This document shows, in pieces, positions 39,025 to 58,616 of a stretch of 64,000 nt of DNA; within the stretch, counting starts at the first letter, position 1; every line of letters starts with the position of its first letter. Origin of the DNA: Escherichia phage DK-13; sequence record MT611523.1. The stretch is one strand, 5' to 3'. The position numbers were made by a program, and so were the translations under genes. The notes under the pieces are model-generated. The model saw nothing but the letters and a program-made list of their open reading frames with translations. It was not told where the DNA came from and searched no databases.

Positions 39025-39050
39025 AGCAAAAAGGGAACCCGAAGGTTCCC
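39025..39050 (-). terminator. rho-independent terminator after soc
   Basis: minus strand GGGAACC-UUCG-GGUUCCC followed by UUUUUGCUUUU. Confidence 0.6.
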
Positions 39051-39055
39051 TATAA

Positions 39056-39289
39056 TTAAACTACTGGGGTAGGCGTAAACATCGCCGCGTTCTTAGTTCG
39101 CCAATCAGCTGCACTAGACGCTACGGTGACATAAGCGGCCTTTTCGGAAGGAAAAGTCTGATAGTGTGCATTAGCAATACGGTGCTCGTTCGAATAGATT
39201 TCAAACGGAACAGATACTTCAACACCTTTAACTTCAACACCTTCACCAGCTGGATGCGTAAAGGTTTTGATATTAACGAAACCACCCAT
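39056..39289 (-). CDS. soc: small outer capsid protein Soc
   Basis: 77 aa; ...VNIKTF.....G...KG.E.SV.F..YS..H.I..AHYQTFPSEKAAY.TV resembles T4 Soc. Confidence 0.85.
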   Translation of the reverse strand: MGGFVNIKTFTHPAGEGVEVKGVEVSVPFEIYSNEHRIANAHYQTFPSEKAAYVTVASSAADWRTKNAAMFTPTPVV

Positions 39290-39332
39290 AATTAACTCCT
39301 TTGTTGTTTAATTACAGGTGTATTTATACTGC

Positions 39333-39566
39333 TTATTTTATCATAACCTTTTTAGTTAAAAGCTCGTCGGGATGCCTTCTGGCGTATGAAGGGCTTTCTT
39401 TTACTGGGGTATTTGAAATAACATCACTTAATTTATCAGCTCTAGCTTTTAATTCTACGTGTTCTTTTGAATCTTTAAAAGGATGACTAATTATTTGCAA
39501 ATTAAGACCATGTAATTCATATTTAAGCCCTTCCATAAATCTTGCTGGGCACCCGTAATTATTCAT
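39333..39566 (-). CDS. hypothetical protein (77 aa)
   Basis: ATG ORF abutting the 3' end of the HNH gene; could be a separate gene or a frameshifted C-terminal part. Confidence 0.35.
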   Translation of the reverse strand: MNNYGCPARFMEGLKYELHGLNLQIISHPFKDSKEHVELKARADKLSDVISNTPVKESPSYARRHPDELLTKKVMIK

Positions 39567-40392
39567 TTTCGAACCTCTTTACCATGTTTATATAATTTTC
39601 GTCTGGATAACCTAAACTAACTGCTAACTTTCTAAAATTCACATATTTAGGTTTGTTATTACTAAGCCATAAATCTCTAAGCTCAATTTCATAATTCCAT
39701 TTAAGCTGGTTTCCTCTAGCAGTTTTGCTCAAAGTTTTTCCTTTATCTTTTAGAGCTTTTTCCGAAGACTGTTTTAATTTTTGGAGATTTAAAACTTCCT
39801 CAACAGATAAATTATTTTCTTCTGCATAGCGCGCACAAAAATCTTTTACTGTAGCTATTAGACAGTTTTTGTGGGTACCTAAAACTTCCGGATTATTTTC
39901 TTCAACCAAAACTCCCCAGTATCTTCGATAGCGAGGCATATCCCGCGAAATCCAGTCATTATACCAGAAATCAAAATTAGAATACATAAAGGATTTTCTT
40001 TTACGGAGAATGTCTTGCTCTATCCACTCCCCGCGTTTATCGGCCCATAACTTAATAGTAAGGTCTTTCTCTAAATCAGAAAGCTTCTTAAACTGGGCAC
40101 TATTTGTTAGTGTCATTCTCTGGAATGCATTAAGCAAACCCAACACCCGAGTTGAGCACAAAAGATAATGAACATATATGTGTTGGTATATAGGAAGATA
40201 CACCCTATTCCAAGGAGAGATTTTAAAATCGCTGTATTCTGGAAATGCACACTTCGGAAGTATATGATGAGCTTCCGTTTTAGATTTGGTATGGACGTTT
40301 AGTTTATACTTATCTATAATTTTTAAGTAATCATCTAAAAGTTCCCATTGCGGGAACTTTTCTTTAAGAACGGATTTGAAATTAATATCCAT
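39559..40392 (-). CDS. HNH-family homing endonuclease-like protein
   Basis: track start 40407 is TTG; ATG at 40392 with AGGA SD; HNH motif EAHHILPKCAFPEYSDFKISPWNRVYLPIYQHIYVH; inserted between 56 and soc. Confidence 0.7.
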   Translation of the reverse strand: MDINFKSVLKEKFPQWELLDDYLKIIDKYKLNVHTKSKTEAHHILPKCAFPEYSDFKISPWNRVYLPIYQHIYVHYLLCSTRVLGLLNAFQRMTLTNSAQFKKLSDLEKDLTIKLWADKRGEWIEQDILRKRKSFMYSNFDFWYNDWISRDMPRYRRYWGVLVEENNPEVLGTHKNCLIATVKDFCARYAEENNLSVEEVLNLQKLKQSSEKALKDKGKTLSKTARGNQLKWNYEIELRDLWLSNNKPKYVNFRKLAVSLGYPDENYINMVKRFENE

Positions 40393-40897
40393 TGTCCTGA
40401 CGTTCAAAGTTGTGTTTATTTTTCAAATAATAAAGTTTAAACATTTCTTCGGCTGACATATTAAGACCAATAGCCATATTGAATACAAAGTGCATAATGT
40501 CAATTAATTCAAATTTAATTTCGAGTTGGTCTTCAGGAGACATTTCTGAAATAGGTTTAGCTTGTGCTTCCAGATAACGAGCTTTCCATTTTTTCCAGAC
40601 ACCTGAAGCATCTTTTTCACCTTTAGACATTTCACCGAGAGAAGTCAAAAGTTCACGGAATTCATCATCAATACAGTCTTTCTGTTCGCGCATCCAGGCA
40701 ACTACATCGCCTGCAGTGGCCAGTTTATCCGGATGGTAGCAATAATCACGGTCATTAGCCAGACGAACCTGCAATGATTTCTGCATATCAAGCATAACTT
40801 GCAGTGGGTCAGTGCCTTCAAAAATTGCATTATCATAAGCGCCTTGAGCTTTATCAACACCAGCAATCAGTTGAGAACACTCGTTAAAATGAGCCAT
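40382..40897 (-). CDS. 56: dCTP pyrophosphatase gp56
   Basis: start moved to ATG 40897 (MAHFNEC...); ...DPLQVMLDMQ..LQ.RLAN.R.YCYHPDKL.TAGDVV.WMREQKDCIDDEFRELLTSLGEMS.GEK.AS.VWKKWKARY.EAQ resembles T4 gp56. Confidence 0.9.
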   Translation of the reverse strand: MAHFNECSQLIAGVDKAQGAYDNAIFEGTDPLQVMLDMQKSLQVRLANDRDYCYHPDKLATAGDVVAWMREQKDCIDDEFRELLTSLGEMSKGEKDASGVWKKWKARYLEAQAKPISEMSPEDQLEIKFELIDIMHFVFNMAIGLNMSAEEMFKLYYLKNKHNFERQDNGY

Positions 40898-40981
40898 TAT
40901 ATTTTTCCTTATCAATTCATGTTGTTTGTATGTTAATTATATCGTATTGGTTTAAAGCATAAATACACGGAAGGAGGATAT

Positions 40982-41179
40982 ATGCTCAAACTATCTAGTC
41001 TAATTCAAGCCATCAAAGGCAGTCGTAAGCGAACGATTCTGGTCCTTTCGATACTCTGTTTAGTTCTACTCTGGAACTTCGTTGTTGCCCCTATTGCATT
41101 GGCACATGGTGTTATATTGCCAGTCGTCGCGCTCGAATCAGTTGTAGATGTTTCACTGGCATTAATCGGCCTTATATAG
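40982..41179 (+). CDS. possible small membrane protein (65 aa) on the opposite strand
   Basis: ATG with strong AAGGAGG SD 4 nt upstream; CATAAATA (late-promoter-like) at about 40958-40965; two hydrophobic segments; all neighbours are on minus strand. Confidence 0.35.
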   Translation: MLKLSSLIQAIKGSRKRTILVLSILCLVLLWNFVVAPIALAHGVILPVVALESVVDVSLALIGLI

Positions 41180-41358
41180 GTGGAACTATGTGAACATTAT
41201 TCTATCAGATTTGGAAATTAACCAGTAAGAAAAGCCCATGATGTTTCTCTGTGGAACTTACTGGTTGTGCCTATCGCTGCAACACAAGGGGTGCACTTAC
41301 CTCAGGTCACAACGGAACATATCCATTCCATCATCGGTTACTTTACCGGAATCCCTTC

Positions 41359-42108
41359 CTAAACTTTTGCGTACTTCCAAAAATGGCCGTTTGACCTATA
41401 CATTCGGCCTGTCTTTTTATTTCTTTTACAAGCTGTGTATATATTTTGAGTATTGCCCGCCAATTGTAATAATTCCTTTGCCTCAGCTCCCGAATTATAC
41501 TTTTCAAGTATATTACCAAATTCATCGCATCTACAAACCGGTGTTCCAGTTGCCTTTCGGCATGCTTCTCGGCGCAACTTTTTCGTTTCTTCGGTTTGCG
41601 GATTTTCTTTAAATCGTCTCATTTGTGCATCGCGATTCTTTTGCCGTTGTTCATCAGTAATTGGATTATTTTGATAATACAATTTTAATGAGTTGGCTAT
41701 TTTGCTTTTGGTTTTATCAGACGCAGGGTGGTCGTTATGTCGCTTGTGTAAAGCAATTAACATTTTGTCTTTAAACTCGGATTGACTCCATAAGTTTGAC
41801 ATATGTTCACTAACGGCTTTACTATGTTCTTTTCGCATCCATTCATATTTTGCGCTATCAAATTTGTCACCACACATCCGGTGTATAGCAAACATTAATT
41901 TAGAAAGTCGATAAATTTTAAAAAGTAACAAATGCGCAATAAAATGTTCTCTTGCTGATAACAATACCAAATTATCTTCGGTGTCAGGCCCACCCAAACA
42001 CCTTGGTAGTATATGATGGGACTCCGTATAAAATGGGATATTCTTTTTGTTTAGGCCCCTTGCGAGGCCTTTGTCTATTAATTTATTATATAATTTTAGA
42101 TAATTCAT
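41359..42108 (-). CDS. HNH-family homing endonuclease-like protein
   Basis: 249 aa; HNH motif ESHHILPRCLGGPDTEDNLVLLSAREHFIAH; N-terminus paralogous to plus-strand HNH ORF at 56212; inserted between 61 and 56. Confidence 0.75.
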   Translation of the reverse strand: MNYLKLYNKLIDKGLARGLNKKNIPFYTESHHILPRCLGGPDTEDNLVLLSAREHFIAHLLLFKIYRLSKLMFAIHRMCGDKFDSAKYEWMRKEHSKAVSEHMSNLWSQSEFKDKMLIALHKRHNDHPASDKTKSKIANSLKLYYQNNPITDEQRQKNRDAQMRRFKENPQTEETKKLRREACRKATGTPVCRCDEFGNILEKYNSGAEAKELLQLAGNTQNIYTACKRNKKTGRMYRSNGHFWKYAKV

Positions 42109-43133
42109 ATTTTTGCATATTTGGATAATCGAAGTTTTGCCATTAAACCTTGTGCAATATTATCATTCATATAGGCTTCAATTTGCTCAGGCGTTGCTCC
42201 TTCCGATTTAATCATTTCATTTATATCTTTCGTATGCCACGGTGCATTGTCCCAGAACATAACAGCTTCTCCTGCATCGACTAATTTCTTCATACGTTTA
42301 ATTGTATCAGGATGTCTTGCTTCTGAATCCATCACCCATACTCTGGTTTCTGGATAAGGAACAGCTTCCAATGACAATGTTCCACCAGTTATCGCAATGC
42401 TGTTAGGGATAAACAAACTATCAATCGGACCTTCCATTACCCATACACGTTTACGCTCATCAATCTTGTCTACGCCATAGACTTTGGAAGCTTCTGGGTG
42501 AGCTTTGATTGTGATATATTTTTGTGGTGCATCTTTGCGAAGAGCTCGTCCTTGGAAAGATTCGATTTCTTTTTTGCCGTTGAAGATAGGAATAACCAAG
42601 CGTGGTTCATTCGTTTCATTCTTATACGTCCCAGGATTAACGGAGTTAACTAATGCGGGCCATTGGTTTGTAAACCATAACCGGTTCCAAACATTGCTCG
42701 GAATACACCGACTTTTTACATACTTAACTATCGGATGCGCTTCTGGTAAAGTATCGAGTCTTTCACAAAAAGCAAGCTGCTCAATAACCGGAGTTTTTTC
42801 TGGTTCTTTCGGAGTTTCAATGACTTCATTGCGTTGTCGCCCGAAGGCGTTCTCCTTATACTTCTCAACCATATATTCCCGGTGTAAATCCGGCTCAAAC
42901 TCTTTTATGTATTTGCTTATATGCGTGGAGTAGTCACAGTTAAAACATTTCACGTAAACCGCACCATCAGCCGGATTAGTATACGCCCAGAATCGAGCCT
43001 TGTGTGAATCTTTCTGGGAGTCCCCACAAACCTTGCAACGACAGTTTGCTTTAAATGTGCTCCCGGTGACTTCTCTATAACGTGGTTGATACGATAAAGC
43101 TCTGACTGCAAATTCTTTATCAATATATGACAT
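42105..43133 (-). CDS. 61: DNA primase gp61
   Basis: 342 aa; zinc-ribbon C.VCGDS...C.NC then TOPRIM-like region (...EGPIDSLF..N.IAITGG...); C-terminal IAQGLMAK.RLSKYAKI resembles T4 gp61. Confidence 0.9.
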   Translation of the reverse strand: MSYIDKEFAVRALSYQPRYREVTGSTFKANCRCKVCGDSQKDSHKARFWAYTNPADGAVYVKCFNCDYSTHISKYIKEFEPDLHREYMVEKYKENAFGRQRNEVIETPKEPEKTPVIEQLAFCERLDTLPEAHPIVKYVKSRCIPSNVWNRLWFTNQWPALVNSVNPGTYKNETNEPRLVIPIFNGKKEIESFQGRALRKDAPQKYITIKAHPEASKVYGVDKIDERKRVWVMEGPIDSLFIPNSIAITGGTLSLEAVPYPETRVWVMDSEARHPDTIKRMKKLVDAGEAVMFWDNAPWHTKDINEMIKSEGATPEQIEAYMNDNIAQGLMAKLRLSKYAKI

Positions 43134-55547: not shown

Positions 55548-55955
55548 TTAAGCAACAACTGCCATTTGTTTGCGGATAGCTTCCGGAAGAGATTCAATAT
55601 ACTCTGGAAGTTGCGCAGCAATAATAGAACCAGCTTGGACCAGGTGGTCGTCGAAGTCAACACAGTAATCATCTTCGAGACGTTCGGAACCGTCACGGTC
55701 GATAACCAGTTTAGCACCAGCAGCCAGTGAATCGTTGTAGTGATTACGCATCAGTTCAATCCACTTATCAGATACATCAGTATCAATCACACCGTACAGC
55801 ATGAATTTAATTTCTTGCGGCAGAGACTGCAGACGGGCAGCAGATGCTTCATCACATGCCAGGACCCAGGATTTGCGGATGCGGTTTTGGTTGTGTGGGT
55901 TGGCGTCGGTGCGGATGGTTTTAACTTGGATATCTTTAGCAGTTACGTTGTTCAT
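55548..55955 (-). CDS. rpbA: RNA polymerase-binding protein RpbA-like (start uncertain)
   Basis: track start 55979 is TTG; ATG at 55955 chosen; position between 45 and 46 as T4 rpbA; similar size. Confidence 0.45.
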   Translation of the reverse strand: MNNVTAKDIQVKTIRTDANPHNQNRIRKSWVLACDEASAARLQSLPQEIKFMLYGVIDTDVSDKWIELMRNHYNDSLAAGAKLVIDRDGSERLEDDYCVDFDDHLVQAGSIIAAQLPEYIESLPEAIRKQMAVVA

Positions 55956-55979
55956 AATATTCTCTCTATTCATTATCAA

Positions 55980-56198: not shown

Positions 56199-56211
56199 AC
56201 AAGGGTCTGAT

Positions 56212-56928
56212 ATGAATTATAACATCATTTACCAAAAGCTTATTAGCAGAGCATTGAATCGCAAATTAACCACATACTCTGAAAGTCATCACATTATACC
56301 CCGTTGCATGGGTGGGGCAGACGACGCTTCAAATCTTGTTGATTTAACTCCCGAGGAACATTTCGTTTGTCATCAACTGTTGGTCAAAATGCATCCAAAT
56401 AATGCTTCTTTGGTCTATGCCGCGCGCATGATGACAGTTTCCTCACCAAACGCCGACAGAAGCAAAAACAAATTATTTGGATGGCTTCGTCGTAAAAACT
56501 TGGAAGCTCAACAAAATAAAATTTTCTCCGATGAAACCAGAAAGAAAATGTCAGAATCCGCCAAATTAAAACCGAGAGTTGAATGTCCACACTGTGGAAA
56601 AACCGGTCTCGTTGGCAATATGAATCGTTGGCATTTTGATAACTGTTCCAAAGGTCCAAACAAGGTTGTTCATACTATTCCAGAAAAACAAAAGCAAAAA
56701 ATTTCAGTAGGATTAAAACAAGCTAAACATGAAATTTTAACTTGTGAATTTTGTGGTCTTGAAGGTAAAAAGTGTGTTATATCCACTCACCAACAATTCT
56801 GCAAATCCAATCCAAACCGGAAGAAAAAGGTGGACCCCAAAATTCAGTGTCCACATTGTAATGTAGTCGGTACGCCAGCCAATATGAAACGTTGGCATTT
56901 TGATAACTGCAAAATGAAGCCTCAATAA
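56212..56928 (+). CDS. HNH-family homing endonuclease-like protein with three C-terminal zinc-finger-like repeats
   Basis: track ORF 56011..56928; start moved to ATG 56212 (MNYNIIYQKL...); HNH motif ESHHIIPRCMGGADDASNLVDLTPEEHFVCH; repeats CPHCGKTGLVGNMNRWHFDNC, CEFCGLEGKKC, CPHCNVVGTPANMKRWHFDNC; only plus-strand gene in this early block. Confidence 0.75.
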   Translation: MNYNIIYQKLISRALNRKLTTYSESHHIIPRCMGGADDASNLVDLTPEEHFVCHQLLVKMHPNNASLVYAARMMTVSSPNADRSKNKLFGWLRRKNLEAQQNKIFSDETRKKMSESAKLKPRVECPHCGKTGLVGNMNRWHFDNCSKGPNKVVHTIPEKQKQKISVGLKQAKHEILTCEFCGLEGKKCVISTHQQFCKSNPNRKKKVDPKIQCPHCNVVGTPANMKRWHFDNCKMKPQ

Positions 56929-56933
56929 GAGGC

Positions 56934-58616
56934 TCATTCCAGAACAGTAAATCGACCGACTTTTTTCATTTGAAGATGCTGTCCATATGCTTCTGGGTCG
57001 TGTTCACGATGGCTAATGATAAACACGTTTTGACCTTCCAATTTATTAATAATTGCCTGGATAGCTTTGATGCCTTCGGCGTCAGTGGCTGAATCCATGA
57101 CCTCATCCAGAATCAACGTACTAATTTGCACACCAGATACTTTCGCAGCAATATCACGCCATGTAAACAGCAATGCGATATCGATACGAGCTTTTTCACC
57201 CTGGCTAAATGATGCATAGCTGAAGTCTTCACGTCCACGAGATTTAATCGTTTCGTTGAACTCTTCATCTAACGTAAAACTATAATCAGCTTCCATAACT
57301 TTAAGATAAGCGTTTATCTGCTTATTAAAGATAGGAATATATTTCTTAATAATCGCGCCCTTAATACCAGAATCTTTCAACATATCCGTTAAGATACCAC
57401 GTTGATATTTTTCCATCACAAGGTCGGATTTTTGTTTGACTATTTTATCAAGCTGGTCTTGAAGCATTTTAATGTCTGCTGCATGGTCAATAAATTCCGA
57501 CTTAGCTTGCTCGATTAATGCTTTAACCTTTTTAGCTTTTTCGACAGTCTGGACTAAGGTTTGTTTCTTAGTTTGAATGTCTTGAGCTATTGTACGCTGG
57601 TTTTGTCTTGCCTTGGTATACGCATCAAATTGCTCTTGAACAGCATTCTGGCGAGCTTTATGCTTATCAGCTGATGCATTACATTCTTCAATCTTTGACT
57701 CAATCCTGGCGACAATGGGGTCTCCTGGATGCAACTGACTGGCACAAGTCTGACAACAACCACCTTTCTCGTACAGACCAACAACCTTTCGGTAATCGTC
57801 TATCTTCGACTTAATCAGGAATGATTCCTGCTTTAACTTCGTGAGTTCATGCTCAGGGTCTTCTCCCAAGATTATCTCGGTCAGTCTTGTTGTTGCTTCT
57901 TCGATAGTCGTCTTGATTCCACGTGCTTCTGTGGCAAGTTCATCATACATCGTTTGCAGCCGCAACAGATTATCACCTGATAATTTTCTTTGACGGTCTT
58001 CGTTGTCCTGATAGATTTTAATCTGTTGAACAATACCATCATGCTGCACATCCATCACCTGGATTTGACTATTGACTTCACGGATAAGAGATTTGTTCAG
58101 CTTATCCATATCGGCCAGTACAGAAACCTCTAAAAGGTCTTCGACGAGTTTTCTTCTTGCAGGAGTGGATAGGCCCATAAAAGGGGTATATCCAGCTGTG
58201 CCGAGTACGACAATCTGTTTGAAGCTTGCGTAGGACATTCCAATGAGCTGTTCAAATTCCGCTTGGAAGTCTTTACTGCTGGCAGATTCATCAAGACGTT
58301 TACCGCCACAAGAGATTTCAAAAACATTGGGTTTTTGCCCGCGTTTGATATAGTATTCTTTTCCATCATATTCCATCCACAATTCAACGAGCATATCTTT
58401 TTTGTTGCTCGAGTTAATCAACTGGCCTTTCTTTACATCACGGAAAGGCTTACCGAACATAGCAAAGGTAACCGCTTCAAGGAACGTAGATTTACCCGCA
58501 CCATTCTTGCCGGTGACCAGAGTTTTTTGGACTTTATCCAGTTCAACAGTAATCGGTTGAGCACCAACCGACATAATATTTTTATAGATAACTTTCTTAA
58601 GCTTAAAAGTCTTCAC
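56934..58616 (-). CDS. 46: recombination endonuclease subunit gp46 (SbcC/Rad50-like ATPase)
   Basis: 560 aa; Walker A GKNGAGKST; coiled-coil middle; C-terminal ...LILDEV.D...; resembles T4 gp46; track start is GTG. Confidence 0.93.
   Translation of the reverse strand: MKTFKLKKVIYKNIMSVGAQPITVELDKVQKTLVTGKNGAGKSTFLEAVTFAMFGKPFRDVKKGQLINSSNKKDMLVELWMEYDGKEYYIKRGQKPNVFEISCGGKRLDESASSKDFQAEFEQLIGMSYASFKQIVVLGTAGYTPFMGLSTPARRKLVEDLLEVSVLADMDKLNKSLIREVNSQIQVMDVQHDGIVQQIKIYQDNEDRQRKLSGDNLLRLQTMYDELATEARGIKTTIEEATTRLTEIILGEDPEHELTKLKQESFLIKSKIDDYRKVVGLYEKGGCCQTCASQLHPGDPIVARIESKIEECNASADKHKARQNAVQEQFDAYTKARQNQRTIAQDIQTKKQTLVQTVEKAKKVKALIEQAKSEFIDHAADIKMLQDQLDKIVKQKSDLVMEKYQRGILTDMLKDSGIKGAIIKKYIPIFNKQINAYLKVMEADYSFTLDEEFNETIKSRGREDFSYASFSQGEKARIDIALLFTWRDIAAKVSGVQISTLILDEVMDSATDAEGIKAIQAIINKLEGQNVFIISHREHDPEAYGQHLQMKKVGRFTVLE

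Follow-up and report, generated by a model that had tools for sequence, protein, structure and literature searches.

Two probable Mob-type HNH homing endonuclease genes beside genes 56 and 61 of Escherichia phage DK-13

What are the two open reading frames (ORFs) that lie on either side of the dCTPase gene 56 in Escherichia phage DK-13, and do they look like mobile genes? We addressed this question in a stretch of 64,000 nucleotides from sequence record MT611523.1 (hereafter the window), which comes from a T4-like genome, a relative of Gaprivervirus. A preliminary description of the window, made from its letters alone, had placed two HNH endonuclease-like ORFs at 39559..40392 and 41359..42108, and we found both at those coordinates on the minus strand, flanking gene 56 (40382-40897) as claimed. 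Here we call them HNH1 and HNH2. We conclude that they are very probably free-standing Mob-type HNH homing endonuclease genes of two unrelated lineages in a T4-like (Gaprivervirus-like) phage. That such genes sit beside essential genes, as the preliminary description also proposed, is borne out by precise boundaries of presence and absence among relatives and by co-conversion-like gradients of identity along genes 56 and 61.

On the minus strand, the order of genes is 61, HNH2, 56, HNH1, a 77-aa ORF (ORF77) and soc, and a dam.1-like ORF is placed on the plus strand between HNH2 and gene 56. The minus-strand features are as follows:

42105..43133, minus strand: gene 61, DNA primase (PHROG 47 DNA primase, E 2e-94)
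41359..42108, minus strand: HNH2, 249 aa (PHROG 655 'homing endonuclease', E 7e-45)
40382..40897, minus strand: gene 56, dCTPase (PHROG 173, E 1.5e-41)
39559..40392, minus strand: HNH1, 277 aa (PHROG 655, E 2e-30; PHROG 12434 'HNH endonuclease', E 5e-10)
39333..39566, minus strand: ORF77, 77 aa, an orphan in a cassette of 235 bp at 39329-39563
39321..39328, minus strand: late promoter of soc, T4-type, TATAAATA (read from the sequence)
39056..39289, minus strand: soc, small outer capsid protein (Pfam Soc, E 4e-18)

Over the 4.3 kb at this locus, the closest relatives of the window are the Gaprivervirus phages vB_EcoM_RZ (hereafter RZ; 94.5%), Yersinia phage P8, P479 and VR7, and any single record covers at most 76% of these 4.3 kb.

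Catalytic motif and family of the two proteins

In both HNH1 and HNH2, we found that the E-HH-(I/L)-P...N...H...H core is kept. When HNH2 is aligned with 49 homologues, the invariant residues are E29, H31, H32, I33, P35, G39, G40, N46, E54, H55 and H59, and when HNH1 is aligned with Mob-like proteins they are E40, H42, H43, P46, N62, H71 and H75. The conserved catalytic His, Asn and distal His/Asn that characterise the HNH superfamily are therefore present in both proteins, each of which also matches PHROG 655. HNH motifs had been claimed for both ORFs, and the claim stands because the catalytic residues are conserved on alignment. In addition, tblastn matches carry the annotations mobB, mobC, mobD and mobE.

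Two strands and a helix are predicted around the motif in the AlphaFold models of both proteins. The AlphaFold2 model of HNH2 (predicted local distance difference test, pLDDT, of 90.7) has a beta-beta-alpha element at residues 28-66, a helical linker and a C-terminal beta/alpha domain. The model of HNH1 (pLDDT 73.6) is good in its N- and C-terminal domains and poor in the middle, and its C-terminus is a confidently predicted three-helix domain that is common to the T6 and fPS-2 homologues. Foldseek comparison of the HNH1 model to viral structures (BFVD) matched MobD-like, MobE and T4 MobC models, together with an entry that is 100% identical to HNH1 (UniProt A0A7G5BCB7); comparison of the HNH2 model to the PDB put HNH domains at the top of the ranking, at scores that are not significant. 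Over its motif, HNH2 aligns with two solved HNH domains, those of a group II intron maturase and of Cas8f-HNH (E 0.017-0.12), and a profile of the HNH1 clade has a weak match to the same Cas8f-HNH domains (E 0.47). Many homologues of HNH2 carry the Pfam domain NUMOD3, and NUMOD1 is likewise found in homologues.

Insertion sites, signatures of homing and expression

We compared both genes to relatives in which the same site is occupied differently. Relative to VR7 and P479, from which HNH2 is absent, pairwise BLAST shows that approximately 41382-42110 is exactly inserted where gene 61 ends (edges at about 41381/41382 and at 42110/42111 against VR7). Just outside the insertion is a short segment that belongs to gene 61:

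41359..41381, minus strand: displaced native 3' end of gene 61, AAGTACGCAAAAGTTTAG, which supplies the last codons and the stop of HNH2

This segment and 42105-42127 form an imperfect direct repeat. In VR7 and P479, without an endonuclease gene at this site, the natural end of gene 61 encodes ...RLSKYAKV followed by the stop, and the last 18 nt of the HNH2 ORF plus the sequence after it (AAGTACGCAAAAGTTTAG GAAGGGATTCC...) are identical to that natural end. In the window and in RZ, gene 61 ends on a recoded copy, TCCAAATATGCAAAAATATGA (...RLSKYAKI and stop), the ATGA of which is both the stop of gene 61 and the start of HNH2. Since HNH2 ends on the native gene 61 end while gene 61 itself has a recoded copy, the cassette lies inside the last five codons of gene 61. 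These junctions indicate that the HNH2 cassette brings a replacement end for gene 61 and terminates on the displaced original one.

HNH2 is 99.6% identical to the RZ 'homing endonuclease' YP_010650896 at the same site, and an orthologue with 54% identity is found at the same post-61 site in the Dhakavirus Bp7. The P8 copy of HNH2 (locus L002, 2820-2890) has a different 3' junction, WKYQDDEGIPVK followed by the stop; it is without the displaced gene 61 stop and is 8 codons longer, which points to an independent integration or to later recombination at this place. The distant Bp7 orthologue ends in WKYQ and the stop. As the P8 and Bp7 junctions differ, they suggest that the joint formed at an AARTAY microhomology.

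In RZ and P8, soc comes straight after gene 56, and by pairwise BLAST against them the window has an exact insertion of 1050 bp (39329-40378), which separates the stop of gene 56 from the late promoter of soc, TATAAATA; its edges are at 39328/39329 and 40378/40379 against RZ. Over ORF77 and the 3' half of HNH1 (39329-39800), the G+C content is 0.30-0.33 as compared to about 0.40 in the neighbouring genes, which is consistent with a foreign origin of the inserted block. The 56/soc site is empty in RZ and P8, and in VR7, P479 and T4 it is filled by segF, a GIY-YIG gene. The ATG of HNH1 is the same nucleotide as the ATG or GTG of segF in these three phages. The first 11 nt of HNH1 are also the last of gene 56, and T4 segF has been described with the identical 11-nt overlap onto gene 56 (PMC2988022). 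The junction reads CAGGACAATGGATATTAA in the window, CAGGACCATGGCTATTAA in VR7 and CAGGACCGGGGTTATTAA at the empty RZ site, and the sequences of the HNH1 and segF sites diverge right after the gene 56 stop.

Orthologues of HNH1 with 88-94% identity are found at the same 56/soc site in Tequatrovirus, Moonvirus and Dhakavirus; those already annotated include the 'HNH endonuclease' of KM16, of fPS-2 (g028c) and of ACG-C40. They adjoin soc directly, for example in Pu-Krd-SF4, KM16 and fPS-2. In fPS-2 (locus L016, 1341-3337), gene 56 is bracketed by HNH genes, with g030c upstream and the HNH1 orthologue g028c downstream, and the two share a C-terminal domain (BLASTP E 1e-9); the bracketing of gene 56 by two HNH genes is thus not unique to the window. 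In the Dhakavirus vB_EcoM_005 (locus L004, 3748-4600), part of the locus is duplicated in tandem, namely the 3' part of gene 56 with the first approximately 60 nt of HNH1, and the primase region is fragmented, with further endonuclease genes. Homing may have rearranged this region, or the assembly of the record may be at fault.

Sequence identity to relatives changes steeply beside both insertions. Compared to VR7 and P479, gene 61 has an identity of 70-74% over its last 60 nt and of 90-100% at distances above about 240 nt from its end; RZ and P8, as carriers of HNH2, are 100% identical to the window over this terminal tract. The tract inherited with HNH2 corresponds to the last approximately 240 nt of gene 61 (42105-42345), and within it identity to T4-type alleles is relatively high, at 75-79% as compared to about 60% over the remainder of the gene. 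In gene 56, identity to RZ is 66-68% beside HNH1 as compared to 95% upstream of the gene and 97% in soc, so that the 3' half of gene 56 is strongly diverged from RZ, the closest relative without the insert. The best match to the window's gene 56 among phage records is only 89%, and HNH1 is 82-99% identical across genera whose gene 56 and soc reach only 65-82%. At each insertion, identity thus climbs from 66-74% to 95-100% within about 250-500 bp, which is the comparative signature of co-conversion, and on this sequence pattern the gradients in genes 56 and 61 look like co-conversion tracts.

Other comparisons fit free-standing mobile genes. Both insertions are at intergenic sites, not in an intron or intein, and are precisely present or absent among close relatives. 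RZ has HNH2 only; P8 has HNH2 and a third HNH gene (HNH3, described below); P479 has segF and HNH3; and the window has all three HNH genes. These differing combinations indicate recent independent gain or loss. The ratio of nonsynonymous to synonymous substitution rates (dN/dS) of HNH1, calculated against a metagenome copy, is 0.04, which indicates strong purifying selection for a functional protein. Comparative signatures of this kind are expected of free-standing homing endonucleases (PMC2988022). In a mixed infection, the enzyme would nick or cut the gene 61 or 56 allele of a related phage without the endonuclease gene, within the 3' part of that allele or close to it. Recombinational repair would then use the carrier genome as template and transfer the endonuclease gene along with an adjoining stretch of gene 61 or 56, and the carrier's own allele would be protected by the sequence differences within that stretch.

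The way in which the genes begin also bears on how they might be expressed. HNH2 starts at the ATGA overlap with the gene 61 stop and HNH1 within its 11-nt overlap with gene 56, and for neither gene is a promoter of its own evident, with a sigma-70 scan at background level. Each HNH gene would be read from the transcript of the upstream gene (61 for HNH2 and 56 for HNH1), and by analogy with T4 mobE and segF, the overlapping start and missing promoter should keep expression of both low. HNH1 has one more such element:

40337..40361, minus strand: terminator-like hairpin AAAAGUUCCC-GCAAU-GGGAACUUUU, with a perfect 10-bp stem, 30 nt inside HNH1

The hairpin has a fold z-score of -2.9, is kept in Pu-Krd-SF4 and KM16 and is annotated as 'terminator' in fPS-2, and terminators are found at the same position in T4 segF and mobE (PMC2988022). 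It should lower the expression of HNH1 further. Overlapping start, absence of a promoter and internal terminator all match features published for the free-standing endonucleases of T4 (PMC2988022).

Several results weigh against the assignment of HNH1 and HNH2 as homing endonuclease genes. Neither protein reaches the gathering score of Pfam PF01844: HNH2 scores 19.8 bits as compared to a cut-off of 21.4 (E 8.6e-4), and HNH1 has no Pfam HNH match. When we searched the C-terminal halves of both proteins for NUMOD or zinc-finger domains with Pfam, we found none, and in HNH2 itself NUMOD is seen only by eye and through its homologues. The matches to solved HNH structures are weak overall (E 0.02-0.5), cleavage activity, target sites and mobility are only inferred from sequence, and part of the identity gradients could stem from older mosaic recombination unrelated to the nucleases. 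A related concern is that the HNH genes are immobile, being domesticated or decaying relics that are idle or are kept for a purpose such as phage-phage competition or marker exclusion, and that the divergence of the flanks is ordinary mosaicism. For several of the T4 mob genes, activity has never been demonstrated (PMC2988022, Table 1), the motif loop of HNH1, besides its lack of a Pfam match, is atypical in being without the GG-x-D element, and gene 56 is hypervariable across all T4-like phages. However, the catalytic residues are intact in HNH1 and HNH2, the low dN/dS of HNH1 indicates selection for a functional protein, the gradients, which point exactly at both insertion junctions, are not seen with relatives that have the insert as well, and the three HNH genes are variously combined in RZ, P8, P479 and the window. 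We consider it improbable that these genes are immobile relics and prefer to read them as homing endonuclease genes.

As homing endonucleases, HNH1 and HNH2 can be compared to two known systems. The T4 Mob proteins (MobA-E) are free-standing HNH homing endonucleases of T-even phages, with MobE as the characterised example. HNH1 and HNH2 may share with them an architecture of an N-terminal HNH nuclease domain and a lineage-specific C-terminal DNA-binding region. Like the mob genes, their genes form intergenic cassettes without an evident promoter that follow an essential gene of nucleotide metabolism or replication and are sporadic among relatives (PMC2988022). The ATGA overlap of HNH2 resembles the UAAUGA at nrdA/mobE (PMC2988022), and HNH1, like mobE, has a terminator inside the 5' end of its ORF. 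In contrast, HNH2 lies at 61/dam.1 and HNH1 at 56/soc, neither of which is a T4 mob site, and identity to the T4 Mob proteins is about 30-45% and confined to the first approximately 100 residues, with different C-terminal domains.

The second system is T4 SegF, a GIY-YIG free-standing homing endonuclease at soc/56 that cuts gene 56 of T2. HNH1 shares with segF exactly the same site, the start nucleotide, the 11-nt overlap and the internal 5' terminator; however, their catalytic domains, HNH and GIY-YIG, are unrelated. When the HNH1-clade profile was compared to SegF with hhalign, the probability was 66% (E 5.6e-5), a score driven by a C-terminal motif, ...W..(E)(I/L)x(E/Q/D)(I/L)W(I/L/V)S..KP, that is common to the HNH1 clade and SegF. 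By BLASTP, HNH1 and SegF have a 12-residue match that is not significant (E 0.23). SegF has been called a 'hybrid' endonuclease (PMC2988022, Figure 1 legend). The common motif agrees with that description and hints that HNH1 and SegF share a DNA-binding module, a similarity that is only suggestive. The C-terminal domain concerned is also the one that g028c and g030c of fPS-2 have in common. According to the account of Sandegren et al. (2005) given in PMC2988022, SegH and Hef replace mobC and mobE, so that different endonuclease families are found at one phage locus. In the same way, the unrelated HNH1 and SegF alternate at one intergenic site beside the same target gene; unlike that case, the locus and the enzyme pair are different, and HNH1 and segF even share the position of their start codon.

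HNH1 and HNH2 are thus elements of an ordinary, well-understood type in a textbook T4-like arrangement, and near-identical genes have already been deposited and annotated. What the locus illustrates is that the HNH and GIY-YIG families use an identical start position after gene 56, that a cassette in the last codons of an essential gene can supply a recoded end and borrow the displaced stop codon, and that endonuclease genes drive local hypervariability of the essential genes 56 and 61.

The small open reading frame between HNH1 and soc

ORF77 is the sole element at this locus without a known counterpart, and it is linked to HNH1. Compared to Pu-Krd-SF4, KM16 and fPS-2, only the ORF77 segment (39329-39563) is extra in the window. 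The start of ORF77, which a GAGG Shine-Dalgarno sequence precedes at a distance of 7 nt, overlaps the stop of HNH1 (ATGAATAA). We found no family or domain match for ORF77 in Pfam, PHROGs or NCBIfam, no match in 50,697 phage records by tblastn and blastn, and none in E. coli genomes, plasmids, IMG/VR or JGI metagenomes. A search of 5.8 billion proteins returned just one twin with 97% identity, and an exhaustive HMMER search of 1.84 billion representatives gave one real relative, P0125 (69 aa, 63% identity), which represents a second allele. Two further HMMER matches were spurious, being tandem-repeat proteins. ORF77 is present in 10 short metagenome contigs, always in the order 56, HNH1 (277 aa), ORF77 and soc, and as two divergent alleles. 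Between the alleles, dS is 0.44 and dN/dS is 0.53, with a 6-nt in-frame indel, and the HNH1 proteins beside them are 99% identical (dS 0.11). Among the phage records searched, none has HNH1, HNH2 and ORF77 together.

The preliminary description had suggested that ORF77 could be a frameshifted C-terminal domain of HNH1, which would make the two ORFs one gene split by a single-base error or mutation. They do overlap by 8 nt in different frames, and a change of one base could in principle fuse them. However, about 30 phages have HNH1 orthologues of 277-278 aa that end at the same codon beside soc with nothing like ORF77 downstream, and relatives with one continuous protein over both ORFs, as expected of a single frameshifted gene, were not found among them. 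The 235-bp ORF77 segment is a discrete extra insertion unlike any endonuclease or phage sequence, the C-terminus of HNH1 is the complete helical domain described above, and the two-ORF arrangement is kept in 10 of 10 metagenome contigs and with both alleles. We therefore give the split-gene explanation next to no credence. It is considerably less far-fetched, if still doubtful, that ORF77 is no gene at all and that the 235-bp segment is non-coding filler or a remnant with an accidental open frame. As well as being an orphan without a family or domain match, ORF77 has a dN/dS that indicates only mild constraint and a dS four times that of the neighbouring gene. In contrast, a stop-free frame of 77 codons at 34% G+C would arise by chance with a probability of about 0.001, and 2-11 stops are present in each of the five other frames; both alleles, at 63% amino acid identity, keep the frame across the 6-nt indel and have conserved ends; and the start is coupled to the HNH1 stop behind the Shine-Dalgarno sequence.

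From these comparisons, we read ORF77 as a separate small gene, weakly constrained or fast-evolving, that travels with HNH1 and forms no part of the nuclease. A more specific and rather unlikely version is that ORF77 is a functional cargo gene attached to HNH1 and spreading with it by homing, in which case its role might lie in anti-defence, in superinfection, or in modulating the nuclease or conferring immunity to it. If this were true, diversifying selection or recurrent allele swapping would account for alleles that diverge so strongly next to a nuclease that is 99% identical, and a homing endonuclease gene would serve as the vehicle for a small accessory gene. P479 (locus L020, 1230-1457) has a 75-aa ORF between segF and soc that is unrelated to ORF77, and small orphan genes seem to have a hot spot in the gap immediately ahead of the soc late promoter. 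On the other side of soc there is one further feature:

39032-39051: intrinsic terminator, 3' of soc (terminator scan)

A third HNH gene and the inverted repeat

A third gene of this type is found elsewhere in the window:

56209..56928, plus strand: HNH3, third Mob-type HNH gene (phmmer against HNH2, E 5e-18)

The neighbours of HNH3 on its two sides are gene 46 (56934-58616) and rpbA (55548-55979), both of which are on the other strand. It has three CxxC...WH(F/Y)xNC zinc-ribbon repeats and weak Pfam matches to HNH and zinc-ribbon families. HNH3 is found at 96-99% identity in only five relatives (P479, PSD2001, MN01, P8 and TH15) and is absent from most other Gapriverviruses. The ORF as listed starts 66 codons too early, and the likely start is MNYNIIYQKL. 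Three HNH genes in 64 kb had been called a high density of selfish elements; the count is correct, but the density is normal for T4-like phages and below that of T4, whose 169 kb contain 15 homing endonuclease genes (PMC2988022), or approximately 5.7 per 64 kb. By phmmer with SegF and by a motif scan, we found no GIY-YIG seg genes in the window.

Between HNH2 and gene 56, there are two plus-strand features:

40982..41179, plus strand: dam.1-like ORF, 65 aa, hydrophobic (PHROG 2024, E 2e-26)
41190..41358, plus strand: decayed second copy of a dam.1-like membrane ORF, which holds the inverted repeat

The two are in tandem. The first, which is intact, has the position and orientation of T4 dam.1, with its strand opposite to that of its neighbours; unlike in T4, there is no dam gene between 56 and 61 in the window. 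The second copy is an intact ORF of 66 aa in P479, VR7 and Bp7. In the window and in RZ, it is broken by a 26-nt deletion between the arms of the repeat, and in P8 a 63-nt deletion removes one arm.

The preliminary description had mentioned an 8-bp inverted repeat here. We found that the repeat exists, with arms of 10 bp rather than 8 (AACCAGTAAG / CTTACTGGTT, at 41220-41229 / 41257-41266) and a 27-nt loop; it has no special status. A perfect 10-bp stem between convergent ORFs that is predicted to form in both strands could be a terminator for the convergent genes or a recognition site for a nuclease. However, a 27-nt loop and the absence of a U-tract are unlike a terminator, and the fold z-scores are -0.96 and -0.52. 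Perfect 10-nt inverted repeats with loops of 3-60 nt also occur at chance frequency, with 10 in the window as compared to 5.8 +/- 3.1 in random sequence. In P479 and VR7, the arms are inside an intact coding ORF (with a loop of 53 nt), and P8 has lost one of them. A function for the repeat at 41220-41266 is thus very unlikely, and we regard it as incidental to a dam.1 paralogue that has decayed.

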